Below, piece by piece: positions 13,143-19,185 of a stretch of DNA of 64,000 bases; positions within the stretch are counted from its first letter, which is position 1; every line of letters begins with the position of its first letter. The stretch lies in the NCBI GenBank assembly GCA_965368975.1, contig CBDUPA010000003.1:1-64000 (forward strand), written 5' to 3'. This DNA comes from an uncultured bacterium (GTDB lineage: Bacteria > Acidobacteriota > Thermoanaerobaculia > Multivoradales > JAHZIX01). The notes under the pieces were generated by a model. It searched no databases. It worked only from the letters and a program-made list of their open reading frames with translations, and had not been told where the DNA came from. Position numbers and translations under genes: made by a program.

Positions 13143-14234
13143 CTACCGCGGTCGTTCCCGCAACCAGCGCACCTCTTGGACGATCGCGCGACCGAGCGCA
13201 CGGGCTACCAACAGTGGCGGGGACGTCGAGCCGAAGGCGCCAGCGATGGCCCACAAGGTGCGCGGGCCGATCGTGCGCTCGGACGTGATGGCGTAGATCG
13301 GTTCCCAACTCTGCGGCAGGAACTTGGCCTTGTAGGCGTCGAGTCCGTCGAAGTCGTAGAAGCGGCGACCATGGGCGCGCACCCAGGCGAGCAGAGCGCG
13401 CAGCCACCAGCGTTGCTCTGGTGCTTCGACGTCGGCGCGCCTGGAGAGGGGACAGAGACCGAGCGTCACATACGCGGCTCCCTCCTTGGCGACCGCGCGT
13501 ATGGCGGTGTCGAGCAGCAGCTCCGTTGTGCCGTTGGGAGCCCCGGCACCCCGGATGTTCTGCTCGATCAGCCAACCCCGACGCTGCGGGATCGGGGATG
13601 CGACGAGGAAGCCGAGGGGGGTCGTGTTCTGTTCTGCGATGAACACGCGTCGATCGTCGAGGCGGTCGAGCGTGTCGGGTTCGACCAGGAAATGGAGCGG
13701 AGGTAGGCCGCGGGTCGACAACCAGTGGTCGAGGCATCGCTGGAGGTCGGCTGGGTGCGGTGCGTCGATGGCGGCCGAATAGCGGCGAACCCGCACCTCC
13801 TTGTTGCTGGCTCGGTTCAATTGGGCTCGTAGCGACGCCTTGCCCTCGAGAATCTCGGTCCAATCGTCGGGACGCCACACCGGCTGGGCGCCGAGTAGGA
13901 TCCGATCGAGGGGACCCCGTGCCGCCAGCAACTGTGCCAGGCGCTCGTCGGCGGCGAAGTAGCACGACCAAAGGCCACGCTGGTGGGTGTCCTGCTCGAA
14001 CTCTTCGACCACGTCGGGCAGCCGCGCGGGAGCACAGATCGGGTCGCCTGCCACCACGCGGTAGCCGGCGTGTCGAACATAGCCGACCACGGCGTCACCT
14101 TGCTGGCTGAACCAGCGTTCGATGCCGGGATTGAGGATCTGGTAGCAGGTGGCGTTCCAGCCGTGGTCGAGCACGAGCTGGCGGGCCTGACGCAGTTCGG
14201 GAGCGTCCCGCAGGTGCCGATGGGGCATGCTCAC
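13143..14234 (-). CDS. DUF2156 / phosphatidylglycerol lysyltransferase C-terminal-like (aminoacyl-tRNA-dependent transferase), no flippase domain
   Basis: VVAGDPIC, APNGTTELL, VTLGLCPL, FYDFDGLDAYKAKFLPQSWEPIY; GTGA overlap with the GT gene. Confidence 0.85.
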   Translation of the reverse strand: MSMPHRHLRDAPELRQARQLVLDHGWNATCYQILNPGIERWFSQQGDAVVGYVRHAGYRVVAGDPICAPARLPDVVEEFEQDTHQRGLWSCYFAADERLAQLLAARGPLDRILLGAQPVWRPDDWTEILEGKASLRAQLNRASNKEVRVRRYSAAIDAPHPADLQRCLDHWLSTRGLPPLHFLVEPDTLDRLDDRRVFIAEQNTTPLGFLVASPIPQRRGWLIEQNIRGAGAPNGTTELLLDTAIRAVAKEGAAYVTLGLCPLSRRADVEAPEQRWWLRALLAWVRAHGRRFYDFDGLDAYKAKFLPQSWEPIYAITSERTIGPRTLWAIAGAFGSTSPPLLVARALGRAIVQEVRWLRERPR

Positions 14235-15649
14235 GCGTCTGCGGAGCGAGCGGAGCCACGCACGCGATCGCGCAGGCGGCGCAGCACCGAGCGTGGACCC
14301 TCGTGGCGCACGGCGCGCAGCAGTCGACGACCGGCTGGCTCCGGGCCACGGCGCAGCAGCTGGGCCGGCGACAGCAGGTGCCCGTGATCCACGGCGGCCG
14401 CGTCCTGGGCGCGCCGGGGCTCTCGGGCCCAGGCGGCGAGAGCGGCTGCCGTCGTTTCCGCTGTACGGCCGGCGGCAAAGGTCAGAGCCGCATCGGCTCG
14501 CCGGGAGCGCTCGTGCGCGTCGCTTGCTAGCCGCTGAAGCGCCGCCGTCAGCAGTTGCGTACGGCGGTCGGGATCACTGTCGATCAGCACGGCTGCATCC
14601 GCCGCCGCCGCGAGTTCGAGAAATTCCACGCCGCGCGTCGCCAGGACCGGCAGTCCCGCCGCCAGCGCGGTGGCCGCGCGCGTGCGGCAGCCGAGTTCCG
14701 TCTCAGCGCAGGCGACATCGATCACGAGGGCGATGTCGCAGTCGAGTAGCACTTGGTGGACGCGCGGCTGTTCGAGCCAGCCGAGGAGATGGAAGCGTTG
14801 CCGATGCGGACTGGTCTCGACACGTGCCTGGAAGGCGCGGAAGGTACGATCGTCCTGTCCGGGAATGCTACCGCCGGTGGCCACGAAGTGCAGTTCGGGA
14901 CGCGCGGCCATGGCCTGCTCGAGGGCATCGAAGCAGGTCCCCGGATCGGCCCAGGTATTCCAGCCCCCCAGCCACAAGACCGCGACGGCGTCCAGCGGCA
15001 GGATGTCGCCGCGCAGAGAAGGGCCAGCGGCCGGCGGCAGAGGCTCCGGCACGCTGCCGATCACGTGCACCAGCTTGGCGTCGAAGGTCGCCTGATTGAG
15101 CCGGCCGGCCAGTCCCAGCTGGCCGAGCGTCGCGAAGCGCTGGCGTTCGGAGACGGTGGAGAAGGCATCAGCGCGTCGCAGGCAAGCCCAGGTGCGCCAG
15201 GAGAAGGCAGCGATGTAGGAATCGTCACCGTAGGTCGCGGCCTTGGCCTGGCCCTCGGCGAGCGGTTCGCCGTGCAGGTCGGCCCAGATGGGCAGGCGCG
15301 TCGAGATGCGGCAAGCGCACGCCGAGGCAAAGCTGCCGGCCCCCACGATCGCCGCGTAGTCGCGCTGTTGCAGCTGGCGGCGCAGGACCCCGGGCCGTTC
15401 CAGCCAGGCTAACGGCACGGACGTCACCGTCGAGCCCAAGGCCGGCGCTTCTTGGCGCAGCTTCTCTTGCGCCGGTGCAGACGTGCCCGGAATGCGGCCG
15501 CCGAGCACGTCGACCTCGAGATCCGCCGCGCGCAGGGCCTGCAGCAGCTGCAGGGTGCGCAGCTGCGCGGCGTAGCGCCGGCTGGCGGAGTCGTCGAAGG
15601 GGGCGTGGCCGAGAAGCAGGAGGGGACGGGGGGAGACAGAGGAGGGCAT
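14231..15649 (-). CDS. Glycosyltransferase family 4 (GT-B)
   Basis: LWLGGWNTWADP, ETELGCRTRAATALAAGLPVLAT C-terminal GT4-type motif. Confidence 0.8.
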   Translation of the reverse strand: MPSSVSPRPLLLLGHAPFDDSASRRYAAQLRTLQLLQALRAADLEVDVLGGRIPGTSAPAQEKLRQEAPALGSTVTSVPLAWLERPGVLRRQLQQRDYAAIVGAGSFASACACRISTRLPIWADLHGEPLAEGQAKAATYGDDSYIAAFSWRTWACLRRADAFSTVSERQRFATLGQLGLAGRLNQATFDAKLVHVIGSVPEPLPPAAGPSLRGDILPLDAVAVLWLGGWNTWADPGTCFDALEQAMAARPELHFVATGGSIPGQDDRTFRAFQARVETSPHRQRFHLLGWLEQPRVHQVLLDCDIALVIDVACAETELGCRTRAATALAAGLPVLATRGVEFLELAAAADAAVLIDSDPDRRTQLLTAALQRLASDAHERSRRADAALTFAAGRTAETTAAALAAWAREPRRAQDAAAVDHGHLLSPAQLLRRGPEPAGRRLLRAVRHEGPRSVLRRLRDRVRGSARSADA

Positions 15650-15770
15650 GGTGCGATGCTACTACGTGGTTGGAGTAAGTCGTGAACGATGAGAAAGCTG
15701 TGTTATTAGTATGCCATCTATAACGGAGTTCCTGGGTTGCATCCCGGCGTTCTCAACTGGAGGAGGAATC

Positions 15771-15917
15771 ATGAAGAAGTCACGGCAGAAGTCCCCGAAA
15801 CTGCAGCTCGAGCGAGAAACGCTGACCCTGTTGCAAGAGAACTCGTTGCAGGACGTGGCTGGCGGAAACCGGTTCACCGACCTGGCGCCTGTTACGACGT
15901 GCTTCTCAGCTGGCTGA
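15771..15917 (+). CDS. RiPP (lanthipeptide-like) precursor peptide 1, 48 aa
   Basis: AGGAGG RBS; MKKSRQKSPKLQLERETLTLLQENSLQDVAGG|NRFTDLAPVTTCFSAG. Confidence 0.8.
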   Translation: MKKSRQKSPKLQLERETLTLLQENSLQDVAGGNRFTDLAPVTTCFSAG

Positions 15918-15958
15918 GGATAGACATCGGACCTTGACGTTTCACGAGGAGAAAGCTC

Positions 15959-16123
15959 ATGAAGAAGAAAACCCTGAAGTTGGCATTGCATCGCGAAACC
16001 CTGGTGACGTTGCAACGGCAGGACGTGCAACTGGTCGCGGGCGCTACGAATGCACTTCTCTGTGGTGATGACCTCTGGCAGACGGGAACACGGTGCAACA
16101 TCAGCATCTGTATCTGTGACTGA
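15959..16123 (+). CDS. RiPP (lanthipeptide-like) precursor peptide 2, 54 aa (not in ORF track)
   Basis: Hand-translated; GAGGAG RBS; MKKKTLKLALHRETLVTLQRQDVQLVAGA|TNALLCGDDLWQTGTRCNISICICD. Confidence 0.85.
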   Translation: MKKKTLKLALHRETLVTLQRQDVQLVAGATNALLCGDDLWQTGTRCNISICICD

Positions 16124-16150
16124 CGTCGCGGGCTTTCAGGCCCGTGTGGC

Positions 16151-16186
16151 AAACCGCCGCGTGCTCTGAGAGCCGTGGCGGTTTTT
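16151..16186 (+). terminator. Rho-independent terminator after precursors 1-2
   Basis: AAACCGCCGCG-TGCTC-TGA-GAGC-CGTGGCGGTTTTT hairpin ending in a T-run. Confidence 0.75.
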
Positions 16187-16416
16187 CATTATGGAGTCTT
16201 GTATACGGTCTTTAAAATATGTCTTACCGATGAAGGCGTTGACTTAGGCAGATGCTTTCTCTGGGATCGCGCTGTTTCTACGTTTCACTCCCTTTGAGCA
16301 GAAGGCCGTCGCCTTCGAACCTGTACAGGTCATCGAGCGGATCGCCTCTGTGCGATGCGATGGTTGCTACCTGTGTTTTCGGAGCCAACTTCATCTCAAT
16401 TTGTGAGGAATGAACC

Positions 16417-16590
16417 ATGAAGAAGACTCAGCGCAAGCCCCCGAAGCTACAATTGCAACGTGAGACTCTTGCGATACTCAGGGACCAGGAGGCAAAGGCG
16501 GCGAGGGGAGCAAGTGCTGCCTCCACAGGGACTTGCATAAATTGTACTTCCGACATCTATGTGAGCTGCCTCCTGCCACCCCTCTACTGA
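16417..16590 (+). CDS. RiPP (lanthipeptide-like) precursor peptide 3, 57 aa (not in ORF track)
   Basis: Hand-translated; GAGGA RBS; MKKTQRKPPKLQLQRETLAILRDQEAKAARGA|SAASTGTCINCTSDIYVSCLLPPLY. Confidence 0.85.
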   Translation: MKKTQRKPPKLQLQRETLAILRDQEAKAARGASAASTGTCINCTSDIYVSCLLPPLY

Positions 16591-16602
16591 GTAACTACTG
16601 AT

Positions 16603-16640
16603 GCACGGCCAGCTGCTTCAGGTGCGTTAGCAGGCCGTGC
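16603..16640 (+). terminator. Hairpin after precursor 3 (possible terminator)
   Basis: GCACGGCC...GGCCGTGC 8-bp stem, followed by GTTAGTTGT (weak U-tract). Confidence 0.45.
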
Positions 16641-16702
16641 GTTAGTTGTCACCTGCTCTCCGTTGACACCTCGCGGCTCCGGGGCTATTTTCTTAGCCTC
16701 CT

Positions 16703-18421
16703 ATGACTACCGCGATCCTCTACCAGCTCCCCCAAGATCCCACTGATTCCGATCCCACAACCGGCCTCGCTCCGCTGCAAGAGCGCTTCCAACTCGGCCC
16801 GGAAAGCCAGCACCGCGAGCAGCGCACCTTCTTCGACACCTTTGACTGGCGTCTGCACGACGCTGGCCTGCGGCTCTGGCTGCAGGCAGCGAAAGGCCGC
16901 GGTGCAGGACGTACGGGAAATTTGCTGTGCTGTCGACGGCAAGATGGGGAAGAGATCCAGCTCCAGCTAGCTCGGGTTCCTGACTTCGCGGCGAGGCTGC
17001 CAGAGGGACCGTTGCGGGCCGTTCTGCTGCCGATCGCCGGCATTCGCTGCCTGTTGCCGCTGGTGACCCTGCGGCGGCAGGTACGGCAGCTGCCAGTCCT
17101 TGATCTCAACGAGAAGACGGTGGTGCGGATGTGCTTGGAGCAGCGGCGGGTCGACTTCGATTCGCGGACGGCTCCGGTGCTCGGCTTGCAGGTGCCGGCG
17201 GCACTGCCCGATCTGCCGCCACGGCTCAGTGTGACGGCGGTGCGCGGGTACGAGGGCGAGGTGGCGCCGCTGTGCTTGTTCCTGGAGACAGACTTGGGAT
17301 TACAGCGCCAGGAATACGACGAGTTGACCGAGGCGCTGGAGACCGTTGGCTGCACGCCTGGGGACTACAGCTCCAAGTACCAACGCGAACTCGACCCGAC
17401 CCTGACCGGCGGCGAGGCCTTCCGTGCTATCGGCCAGGAGCTACTGACGACGTTGCAGCGCAACGAGCCAGGGCTGCGGCGGGATCTGGATGTCGAGTTT
17501 CTCCACGACTTCCGTGTCGCGGTCCGCCGCACGCGCACCGCGCTGGGCCAGCTCAAGAGCCTGGTGCCAGCCGAGTTGTTGGCTTCGTTCAGGAGCGAGT
17601 TTCGCTGGCTCGGCCAAGTGACGGGGCCCAAGCGTGACCTCGATGTCTTCGTCGAGCACCTGGACGGGGAGTACCGTGGTGAGGTGCCGGAGCGTCTGTT
17701 GCCCGATTTACGGCGGCTACGTGAGCGGATGTGCAAGCATTTGCCACGCGAACAGCGCAAGCTGGTCAAGGCTCTCGACTCGGCCCGCTACGCGGAGCTA
17801 CTCGCGGACTGGGGGGCGTTTCTAGCTTCTTCTTCGGTAGCTGAGACAGCGGATGATGAGAGCGCGGATGCAGGCAAGCCAGTGACGGTCGTGGCGTCGG
17901 TGGCGCTCGGACGGGCGTTTCGCAAGGTGTTCAAGCGCATCGACGCAATCGGCGACGCCTCGCCGGACGAGGACTTCCATCGCTTGCGTATCGAGTGCAA
18001 GAAGATCCGCTATCTGATGGAGTTCTTCCGCTCGCTGTTCCCAGCCGAAGAGTTGGCTCGCTTGATCAAGGCTTTGAAACAACTGCAAGACCAGCTGGGT
18101 GAGTTCCAAGATTTGAGCGTGCAACAAGAGGATCTGCGTCGCTATGCGCAGCAGGTGCAACGGGGGCAATGTGCGTCCGTGGCGCGGCGCGCCAAGATGG
18201 AGGCCTCCCGGGAGCGCCGGCAGGCGGAGGTTCGTAGCGTCGAAGAGAGTACTGACGAGCTGCTGCTGATCGGTTTCCTGATGGCCCGCCTCGACCGCCG
18301 TCACGATGGCGTCCGTGCGGGCTGCTTCAAGGCGTTGGAGCGCTTCGCGCGGCCAGCGCGAAGGCGTCGGGTCCAGGAGTTGTTCGCTGGAGAGCGCTCG
18401 ACTGAGGGAGGTGGCGCGTGA
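16703..18421 (+). CDS. CHAD domain protein (polyphosphate-binding) with degenerate CYTH-like N-terminus
   Basis: FFDTFDWRL N-terminal motif; CHAD motifs LHDFRVAVRRTR, RDLDV, HRLRIECKKIRY, LQDQLGEFQD. Confidence 0.9.
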   Translation: MTTAILYQLPQDPTDSDPTTGLAPLQERFQLGPESQHREQRTFFDTFDWRLHDAGLRLWLQAAKGRGAGRTGNLLCCRRQDGEEIQLQLARVPDFAARLPEGPLRAVLLPIAGIRCLLPLVTLRRQVRQLPVLDLNEKTVVRMCLEQRRVDFDSRTAPVLGLQVPAALPDLPPRLSVTAVRGYEGEVAPLCLFLETDLGLQRQEYDELTEALETVGCTPGDYSSKYQRELDPTLTGGEAFRAIGQELLTTLQRNEPGLRRDLDVEFLHDFRVAVRRTRTALGQLKSLVPAELLASFRSEFRWLGQVTGPKRDLDVFVEHLDGEYRGEVPERLLPDLRRLRERMCKHLPREQRKLVKALDSARYAELLADWGAFLASSSVAETADDESADAGKPVTVVASVALGRAFRKVFKRIDAIGDASPDEDFHRLRIECKKIRYLMEFFRSLFPAEELARLIKALKQLQDQLGEFQDLSVQQEDLRRYAQQVQRGQCASVARRAKMEASRERRQAEVRSVEESTDELLLIGFLMARLDRRHDGVRAGCFKALERFARPARRRRVQELFAGERSTEGGGA

Positions 18422-19185
18422 AGATCCTGGCCATTTACAACATCAAGGGTGGGGTCGGCAAGACGGCGACGTCGGTCAACCTCGCCTGGTTGGCAGCCCG
18501 CGAGGGCTGGAGGACGCTGCTCTGGGATCTCGACTCGCAGGCCGCGGCAACCTACTACTTGCGTGTCGAGCCGAAGGTCAAAGGCGGGGGCAAGAAGCTG
18601 ATCCAGGGCCGATCCGACCTGGAAGCGAGCATCCGCGGCAGCGACTACGAAGGGCTGGATCTGCTGCCCGCCGACCTCTCCTACCGCAAGTTCGACCTGG
18701 CGCTGGACGACACCAAGAAGCCCGAGCGGCAACTGCGACGGCGGCTCAAGCCCTTGGCCGACGACTACGACATCGTGATCCTGGACGCCCCGCCCGGCCT
18801 GACGCTGCTCGCCGAAGCTGTCTTCGAGGCTGCCGATGCTCTCTTGGTGCCGACCATCCCGACCCATCTCTCGCAGCGTACACTGTTGCAGCTGCAGGAG
18901 TTCGTTCACCACAAGGGCCCCAAGAAGCTGCCGATCTGGCCCTTCTTCTGCATGGTGGATCGGCGCAAGAAGCTGCACCGGGAGCCCGAGAGGCTGTTCG
19001 ATGCCCTGTCCTTGCCCTTCCTGCGCAGCGAGGTACCCTACGCCAGCGCGGTCGAGCAGATGGGCATCCACCGGCAGCCGGTCTTTGTCTTCGACGCCGC
19101 CAGCCCGGCCGCGGAGGCCTACCGCAACGTGTGGGCCGAAGTCTGGGTGCGCCTGTCGGGGAAGCGGGAGTCATCGGACAGCTAG
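18418..19185 (+). CDS. ParA/MinD-family ATPase (orphan, no ParB)
   Basis: Deviant Walker A KGGVGKT, DLDSQ, ILDAPP; GTGA overlap with the CHAD gene. Confidence 0.9.
   Translation: MKILAIYNIKGGVGKTATSVNLAWLAAREGWRTLLWDLDSQAAATYYLRVEPKVKGGGKKLIQGRSDLEASIRGSDYEGLDLLPADLSYRKFDLALDDTKKPERQLRRRLKPLADDYDIVILDAPPGLTLLAEAVFEAADALLVPTIPTHLSQRTLLQLQEFVHHKGPKKLPIWPFFCMVDRRKKLHREPERLFDALSLPFLRSEVPYASAVEQMGIHRQPVFVFDAASPAAEAYRNVWAEVWVRLSGKRESSDS

Follow-up and report, generated by a model that had tools for sequence, protein, structure and literature searches.

Orphan precursor genes with class I lanthipeptide leaders in an uncultured acidobacterial genome and their candidate maturation enzymes

Natural combinatorial lanthipeptide libraries have so far been documented for class II of the marine picocyanobacteria, where large dispersed sets of precursors are served by one promiscuous enzyme, ProcM or SyncM (PMC12328550; PMC7268733). 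For Bacteroidetes, a leader of the LxLxKx5L type ending in a double glycine (GG) has been described, together with its association with class I enzymes and with cleavage at the GG (Walker et al. 2020, PMC7268733), and PMC9680876 reports the modification of viridisin-type peptides by LanB and LanC in E. coli. Here we consider three small open reading frames (ORF1, ORF2 and ORF3) in a 64-kb stretch of DNA (hereinafter the window), which is the first 64 kb of the 449 kb contig C3 in the genome (G000; 7.13 Mb, 59 contigs, 65.4% guanine-plus-cytosine (GC) content) of an uncultured bacterium of the Acidobacteriota. The three ORFs are members of a known precursor family, of which this genome has at least 50 precursor ORFs at 36 loci on 18 contigs, with the window locus being one of three triplets. 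We consider it probable that the three are orphan class I lanthipeptide precursors belonging to a dispersed library, which is matured in trans by the LanB and one or more LanCs encoded on another contig, C13.

The same leader type, defined by the NCBIfam family NF038153, characterizes the Gram-negative L1a class I lanthipeptides, such as Ped15.1/15.2 of Pedobacter lusitanus, the thalassomonasins and the viridisins (PMC7268733), which also resemble the present family in their GG-type leader ends, their cores rich in Cys and Ser/Thr and the presence of LanB/LanC homologs. In the loci of Pedobacter and Saprospiraceae the related leaders adjoin LanB/LanC. While the L1a systems comprise a few genes inside one cluster, about 50 members are found at 36 loci here, and the window genes have no enzyme in the window or elsewhere on contig C3. 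Further, the window motif has an Arg (RETL) in place of their Lys, and the C13 LanB cluster lacks a C39 exporter.

The prochlorosins and synechococsins of the marine picocyanobacteria (ProcM, SyncM) likewise combine a conserved leader and hypervariable cores with many precursors lying far from a single synthetase (PMC12328550; PMC7268733). In contrast to their LanM, separate LanB and LanC proteins are present here; the leader is a short L1a version of about 30 aa rather than Nif11; the only LanM of this genome lacks the CCG motif; and there are several LanCs, some of them paired with their own precursor. The phyla also differ, with the nearest named LanB relatives coming from Acidobacteriota metagenome-assembled genomes (MAGs). 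A first-pass annotation, made from the letters of the window alone, had compared the three genes with a prochlorosin-style dispersed library. This holds for the layout, with 50 precursors at 36 loci sharing a leader and bearing unrelated cores, but not for a ProcM-type LanM as the enzyme. It had also compared the leaders with those of pinensin-like class I precursors, and their class I type is upheld by NF038153 and by the LxLxKx5L motif with GG (PMC7268733). The pinensins of Chitinophaga pinensis are class I peptides with an LxLxKx5L-type leader and a split LanB (PMC7268733). Here, however, the likely dehydratase is a full-length protein of 1159 aa with both Pfam domains that is flanked by same-leader precursors, whereas the split LanB of this genome lies on a different contig from the window (C12) and has a distinct precursor of its own adjacent to it. 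The cores of the family show no detectable relation to each other; pinensin itself was not part of this comparison.

The window precursors and their genome-wide family

The three ORFs lie on the + strand at 15771–15917 (ORF1, 48 aa), 15959–16123 (ORF2, 54 aa) and 16417–16590 (ORF3, 57 aa). All start with MKK, carry a K-L-x-L-x-R-E-T-L-x-x-L leader and end that leader exactly 14 residues past RETL, with GG in ORF1 and GA in both ORF2 and ORF3. The leader of ORF1 (32 aa, 15771–15866) is followed by the 16-aa core NRFTDLAPVTTCFSAG and a stop codon (15867–15917; 1 Cys, 4 Ser/Thr), with the predicted cleavage site taken from the position of the GG; that of ORF2 (29 aa, 15959–16045) by the 25-aa core TNALLCGDDLWQTGTRCNISICICD and a stop codon (16046–16123; 4 Cys, 4 Ser/Thr); and that of ORF3 (32 aa, 16417–16512) by the 25-aa core SAASTGTCINCTSDIYVSCLLPPLY and a stop codon (16513–16590; 3 Cys, 7 Ser/Thr). 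Pairwise identity among the window peptides is 47–59% for the leaders and 12–24% for the cores. The leader pattern, its spacing and ends, the composition of the cores and their lack of relation are thus exactly as the first-pass annotation had given them. Its description of the array as hidden is true only in relative terms, as a large protein collection already includes ORF2 among its called proteins. A homolog search with ORF2 returned only the window's own protein, out of three candidates, such a search being of low sensitivity for 54 aa.

In an NCBIfam scan, NF038153 (lant_leader_L1a, class I lanthipeptide leader) is the sole family significantly matching all three window peptides, with 33.3 bits for ORF1 (over residues 1–32), 21.4 for ORF2 and 20.8 for ORF3 against a curated cut-off of 22. 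The same scan recovered no Nif11 or NHLP match, and a Pfam scan of the three peptides gave no match. Against a profile of this genome's leaders they score E = 1e-10 to 6e-12, all three having been part of that profile. The first-pass annotation had called for a genome-wide scan, counting a lack of other leader copies against its reading; 47 copies beyond the window ORFs were found. The strict leader pattern has 27 matches in the six-frame translation of the genome, each heading a short Cys-rich frame, as compared to none in a reversed-sequence decoy genome. A hidden Markov model (HMM) of the leader detects 50 distinct small ORFs at E <= 1e-3, of which the 27 pattern matches that seeded it match by construction and the other 23 are additional; on the reversed decoy it detects none at this threshold (best E 3.5). 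NF038153 alone has 21 genome matches at E <= 0.01.

Across the 50 members, placing the boundary between leader and core at the first GG, G[AS] or A[GA] 5–17 residues past the motif yields leader ends of GG in 35, GA in 10, AA in 3 and AG in 2. A GGAG or GAGG is found at −20 to −4 in 47 of the 50, as compared to 13.2% of 5000 random ATGs. The leaders share a mean pairwise identity of 46% and the cores one of 24.5%, against a shuffled-core baseline of 23.3%. Cys is all but confined to the cores, where it makes up 12.0% of residues, as compared to 0.1% in the leaders (one leader of 50 has a Cys) and 0.9% in the long ORFs; Ser and Thr together reach 19.4% of the cores against 10.6% of the long ORFs. 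Every one of the 50 cores has both Cys and Ser/Thr, with Ser+Thr at least equaling Cys in 49. The Cys count is odd in 26 cores and even in 24, and seven cores have a single Cys, which makes an obligatory pairing into disulfides less likely and is consistent with each Cys having one Ser/Thr as its partner. Lys and Arg account for only 2.9% of the residues of the 50 predicted cores.

At the conserved L/R/E/T/L columns synonymous codons are well mixed (Glu by GAA in 24 and GAG in 24, Arg by four codons), and the synonymous divergence (dS) between paralogs is saturated, averaging 1.45 over 290 pairs drawn from 29 gapless sequences. This indicates that the leader has been kept by selection on the peptide and not by recent copying. 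In an all-vs-all blastn comparison of the genes with 400 bp flanks, DNA similarity between paralogs is confined to the 40–110 bp coding for the leader, and a count of exact k-mers over 250 nt upstream of each of the 50 revealed nothing beyond the self-overlap of neighboring genes. A transposed cassette or a shared regulatory box was considered and dropped, as the paralogs have no common flank, mobile element or promoter box. The family's GC content at third codon positions (GC3) is 0.749, as compared to 0.764 in long ORFs, implying that its codon usage is native.

Two members stand out by their position or start. At C3:373058–373207, outside the window, a leader-bearing frame with a Shine-Dalgarno site has ACG instead of ATG/GTG/TTG at the position of the MKK, and would be a relic or else a gene with a non-canonical start. 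At C10:200894–201127, in a neighborhood of core housekeeping genes, a precursor of 77 aa containing 8 Cys lies tightly placed between lipoyl synthase and the 3′ part of rpoC.

Candidate maturation enzymes and a model of leader recognition

Whole-genome profile searches found no PF04738, PF14028, PF05147, PF13575 or PF03412 match anywhere on contig C3, and none of the 35 radical S-adenosylmethionine (radical-SAM; PF04055) matches of the genome falls in C3:1–64000. Accordingly, the absence of LanB, LanC, LanM, radical-SAM and C39 proteins from the 64 kb, noted at first pass, is confirmed, and with no Lan enzyme match on C3 the window precursors are not clustered with LanB/LanC. It had further been proposed that maturases for peptides that are made ribosomally and then modified post-translationally be sought in the rest of the genome, their complete absence being held against the reading; the search located a LanB, two LanCs and two same-leader precursors together on contig C13. 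This LanB (1159 aa) is the sole full-length version in the genome, with E = 2.4e-167 to PF04738 and E = 7.6e-66 to PF14028. Reading away from it, the cluster has the two same-leader precursors, whose leaders are 43–54% identical to those of the window, followed by the two LanC genes. The cluster is flanked by the housekeeping genes cmk, rluB, scpB, scpA and Nramp, and has no transporter, protease or C39 exporter within it. Directly upstream of LanB (C13:52418–54337, − strand) lies a gene for a 639-aa protein without a Pfam family, which gives a weak NCBIfam match to a putative glycosyltransferase family (31 bits against a cut-off of 200) and for which tblastn found no counterpart in other LanB loci.

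Two stand-alone LanCs are each preceded by one leader-bearing precursor 205–260 bp upstream, forming two-gene LanA–LanC modules (C1:561300–562869 and C13:186196–187686) that sit among unrelated genes; the LanC at C13:186k (436 aa) lacks the CHG zinc-ligand motif. Three longer LanC-domain proteins (787, 906 and 839 aa) are also encoded in the genome, as are three ATP-binding cassette (ABC) transporters with a C39 peptidase (PCATs), none of them on C3. Overall, a Lan enzyme is found within 300 bp of only four precursors out of 50; the remaining 46 are at least 17 kb from any LanB, LanC, LanM or PCAT match, or on another contig, with the nearest PCAT to any family member being 37 kb away.

We modeled a complex of LanB residues 1–850 with ORF2, which scored 0.76 as compared to 0.01 for the best of three controls; among benchmark cases, 51 of the 78 solved complexes reach this mark, as do 2 of the 108 mismatched pairs. 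The runs agree in at least 49% of contacts, with a predicted local distance difference test score (pLDDT) of at least 44 for the partner. The confident contacts on the peptide are residues 7–8 and 10–20 of ORF2, i.e., exactly the K-L-x-L-x-R-E-T-L-x-x-L motif, and those on LanB are residues 244–314, 458–459 and 678–682. The model thus treats this non-FNLD motif as the LanB-binding element. The solved sequence relatives of the C13 LanB are NisB (4wd9 and 6m7y), MibB (5ehk) and 9g04.

The genes, the leader family, the make-up of the cores, the enzymes with their locations and the co-occurrence of leader and LanB across genomes are observed directly, and from these we infer the action of LanB/LanC in trans on the window peptides, the promiscuity of these enzymes, the cleavage site, the export route, expression and any biological activity. 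We posit that after translation the KLxLxRETLxxL leader would be bound by the N-terminal glutamylation domain of the C13 LanB, which would then glutamylate Ser/Thr of the core using Glu-tRNA and eliminate glutamate to give dehydro-residues. The LanCs would add core Cys to these dehydro-residues to form thioether rings, the candidates being the LanC pair of the C13 cluster and possibly also the LanCs that stand alone. Finally, the leader would be removed after the GG/GA, probably by one of the three unlinked C39-peptidase ABC exporters.

We regard as unlikely the alternative that the family is processed by a different maturase encoded elsewhere in the genome, with the L1a leader being a shared handle that is not specific to LanB. 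All the enzymes that it would draw on are present, namely the LanM of contig C18, the split LanB of C12, a trio of LanB_N-like proteins on C9, and LanKC/LanL-like or radical-SAM proteins, and a LanM pathway with a Cys-rich core has been characterized from Thermoanaerobaculia (PMC13083261). However, in the vicinity of the LanM, of the split LanB, of the C9 trio and of the long LanC-domain proteins, none of the 50 leader ORFs is found. The split LanB (C12:117002–120874) comprises an elimination-domain protein of 367 aa and, following it, a glutamylation-domain protein of 921 aa, has no LanC near it, and adjoins its own 40-aa precursor directly upstream, which lacks a GG and has a different, short leader of the LNLELETV type and 5 Cys in its core. 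The C9 trio (C9:118735–128334) consists of three adjacent Lant_dehydr_N-like frames (878, 1698 and 944 aa) without a Lant_dehydr_C partner, and no leader-bearing ORF is found near it.

The sole LanM lies at the start of contig C18, such that any precursors of its own could be out of sight beyond the contig edge. It has the zinc motif as an ordinary CHG at residues 1031 and 1076 and not the CCG of promiscuous ProcM-type enzymes (motif meaning: PMC12328550), which argues against its being ProcM-type, and its downstream neighbors are unrelated; on both grounds it was set aside as a ProcM-like candidate. Hence, it is the full-length LanB, and neither a pinensin-type split LanB nor a ProcM-type LanM, that these sequences point to as the likely enzyme. 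A radical-SAM maturase was set aside as well, as the radical-SAM gene that runs divergently from the C10:200894 precursor codes for lipoyl synthase and no radical-SAM match falls in the window. On the side of the different-maturase alternative there is also the family member on contig C27 (37553–37717), which is followed on the same strand by genes for an AsnB-like protein (weak match, 458 aa), a radical-SAM protein (348 aa) and a FAD-dependent oxidoreductase/halogenase-like protein (554 aa), spanning C27:37553–41879; these genes may be a tailoring operon using the same leader. Further against that alternative, the leader is linked to LanB/LanC in other genomes, as detailed below.

Distribution in related genomes and competing readings

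The nearest named relatives of the C13 LanB are from Acidobacteria and Thermoanaerobaculia MAGs (44–55% identity), followed by those from Saprospiraceae and Pedobacter (30% for the Pedobacter LanB). ORFs detected by the leader HMM adjoin LanB/LanC homologs in five of seven LanB loci, namely L027, L029, L031 and two clusters of G007, which come from records of Acidobacteria, Pedobacter and Saprospiraceae in addition to G007 itself. Of the remaining two, one is a truncated contig (L028) and the other had no such ORF (L030). Thus, the leader is linked to LanB/LanC in more than one phylum. An NF038153 leader (E <= 0.01) is found in six of 31 genomes from the same order, all of which have a canonical LanB (E <= 1e-105), as compared to none of the 24 lacking a canonical LanB; the seventh LanB-bearing genome (G009) has no leader match. 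As related genomes are not independent, this co-occurrence is to be read as an association and not as statistics. The five same-family genomes G001–G005 have no NF038153 match at E <= 0.01. In a phylum-wide sample of 301 genomes, the leader (E <= 1e-3) is present in 12, including the unpublished G179, with G000 having the most matches (13) and the next genome six.

With a profile built from 19 leaders of G000, the counts per genome are 41 in G000 (19 of these by construction), 27 in G030, 18 in G011, 12 in G257, four in G007 and three in G020. G011 and G030 belong to another family of the same order and both show the dispersed layout. In G011, a 100% complete genome, the 20 kb locus of the single LanB has no leader ORF or LanC, and the LanCs and the 18 leader matches are on other contigs; with LanB unlinked from both LanAs and LanCs, action in trans is the only way in which its system could work. 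Two- or three-gene LanA–LanC modules without LanB recur in G011 (C35) and G030 (C8). Action in trans hence looks normal in this lineage.

Several points weigh against the proposal that the window peptides are matured in trans by the C13 enzymes. The genome has other candidate enzymes, i.e., the LanM, the split LanB, the three LanB_N-like proteins, the further LanC-domain proteins and the 35 radical-SAM matches, and the C27 operon suggests that the leader may serve more than one pathway. The assembly is in 59 contigs, with the window at a contig end, the LanM at the start of C18 and two precursors at the start of C16. The pass of the modeled complex may partly be memory of the NisB–NisA complex, since solved relatives exist, and does not discriminate among the family members as to binding. 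Only ORF1 exceeds the curated NF038153 cut-off, the scores of ORF2 and ORF3 being slightly under it; over half of the HMM matches were its seeds; and the boundary between leader and core is heuristic. Moreover, no core is net cationic, the net charge ranging from 0 to −7 over all 50, unlike in classical lantibiotics; these uniformly neutral-to-acidic cores argue against a classical cationic lantibiotic role.

A second alternative, which we deem distinctly improbable, is that the products are unmodified or disulfide-only double-glycine peptides, akin to bacteriocins or signaling peptides, that are cut and exported by C39 ABC transporters without lanthionine formation. It accommodates the GG/GA ends of the window leaders and the three C39 transporters in the genome; moreover, GG leaders are common cargo signals (PMC7268733) and ORF1 has a weak match to the bacteriocin-like family NF046113 (E = 0.091). 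Yet, odd Cys counts are as common as even ones, the single-Cys cores included, the cores are enriched in Ser+Thr at or above the number of Cys in all members but one, no family member has a PCAT closer than the 37 kb given above, and among the genomes of the order the leader is confined to those having a canonical LanB. Very improbable is a third alternative, in which the three ORFs would be silent remains of a lanthipeptide locus that was formerly clustered, their frames having survived by chance and their expression or processing having ceased: the lack of a nearby enzyme, the lack of NF038153 matches in the same-family genomes and the member at C3:373058 without an ATG/GTG/TTG start would fit, but all three frames are unbroken, a Shine-Dalgarno site precedes each of them and a hairpin lies downstream of each transcription unit, the paralogs are old (dS about 1.45, saturated) yet have kept the motif residues through scrambled synonymous codons, Cys is kept in 50 of 50 cores, and the same dispersed pattern occurs in G011 and G030.

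Returning to maturation in trans by the C13 LanB and LanCs, we offer a broader proposition, to which we give even chances, namely that this bacterium runs a class I counterpart of the prochlorosin system that arose independently of the cyanobacterial class II version. Here, one LanB would act on some 50 dispersed precursors whose cores are unrelated and non-cationic, and a small set of LanCs, partly residing in LanA–LanC modules, would determine the topology of the rings; the dispersed layout would be a lineage trait and not a one-off, as it is shared by G011 and G030. The literature searched, the coverage of which is incomplete, yielded no account of a class I library with dispersed precursors, and class I clusters with several precursors may be among the supplementary tables of PMC7268733. 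The mining of Walker et al. 2020 reached to within seven genes of LanC (PMC7268733), and such cluster-based mining, which looks only near LanC, would miss 46 of the 50 precursors in this genome. If the proposal is true, the LanB and LanC set is possibly tolerant of very diverse cores, which would be useful for peptide engineering, and the family would be a second example, independent of the first, in which to study what makes bacteria maintain hypervariable libraries of peptides.

Transcription units and neighborhood of the window locus

Each window ORF is preceded by its own Shine-Dalgarno site, read from the sequence at a spacing of 4–7 nt: GGAGGAGG at 15759–15766, 4 nt ahead of the ORF1 start codon, GAGGAG at 15946–15951 ahead of ORF2, and GAGGA at 16405–16409 ahead of ORF3, all on the + strand. 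Folding reveals an intrinsic-terminator-like, GC-rich hairpin 3′ of ORF2 (16154–16186, + strand), with its stem at 16154–16181 and a UUUUU at 16182–16186; the free energy over 16121–16195 is −40.2 kcal/mol (z = −4.56), equaled by none of 200 shuffles. A strong hairpin without a U tract follows ORF3 (16597–16646, + strand), with −35.5 kcal/mol over 16588–16660 (z = −4.07), equaled by one of 200 shuffles. A terminator consensus scan listed neither hairpin. The gap between ORF1 and ORF2 shows no RNA structure on folding (z = +0.51), and the two are for this reason probably on one transcript. The genes would thus form two transcription units, ORF1–ORF2 and ORF3.

The GC content is 0.51–0.57 across 15600–16650, as compared to 0.65–0.77 in the flanks. 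The position, Shine-Dalgarno sites and GC dip described at first pass are all borne out. Within the window ORFs, GC3 (0.76, 0.67 and 0.62) exceeds the content at second codon positions (0.45, 0.42 and 0.52), which speaks for their being real coding genes. Horizontal transfer was considered as the cause of the low GC and rejected, given the closeness of the family's GC3 to that of long ORFs; we attribute the dip to the Lys-rich leaders and intergenic DNA instead of a foreign origin. The low-GC stretch, of about 1 kb, lies between a GT4 glycosyltransferase gene (14231–15649, − strand) and a CHAD-domain gene (16703–18421, + strand), and the genes flanking the precursors code for these two proteins, a ParA-like ATPase and a trypsin-like peptidase. 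As the window begins at base 1 of C3, the upstream sequence is known only for 15.7 kb. In the same-family genomes, the GT4 gene was not found beside the CHAD–ParA pair within the approximately 1.5 kb inspected. The pair itself, with the CHAD gene followed by that of the ParA-like ATPase (16703–19185 in the window), is kept in four of the five same-family genomes.

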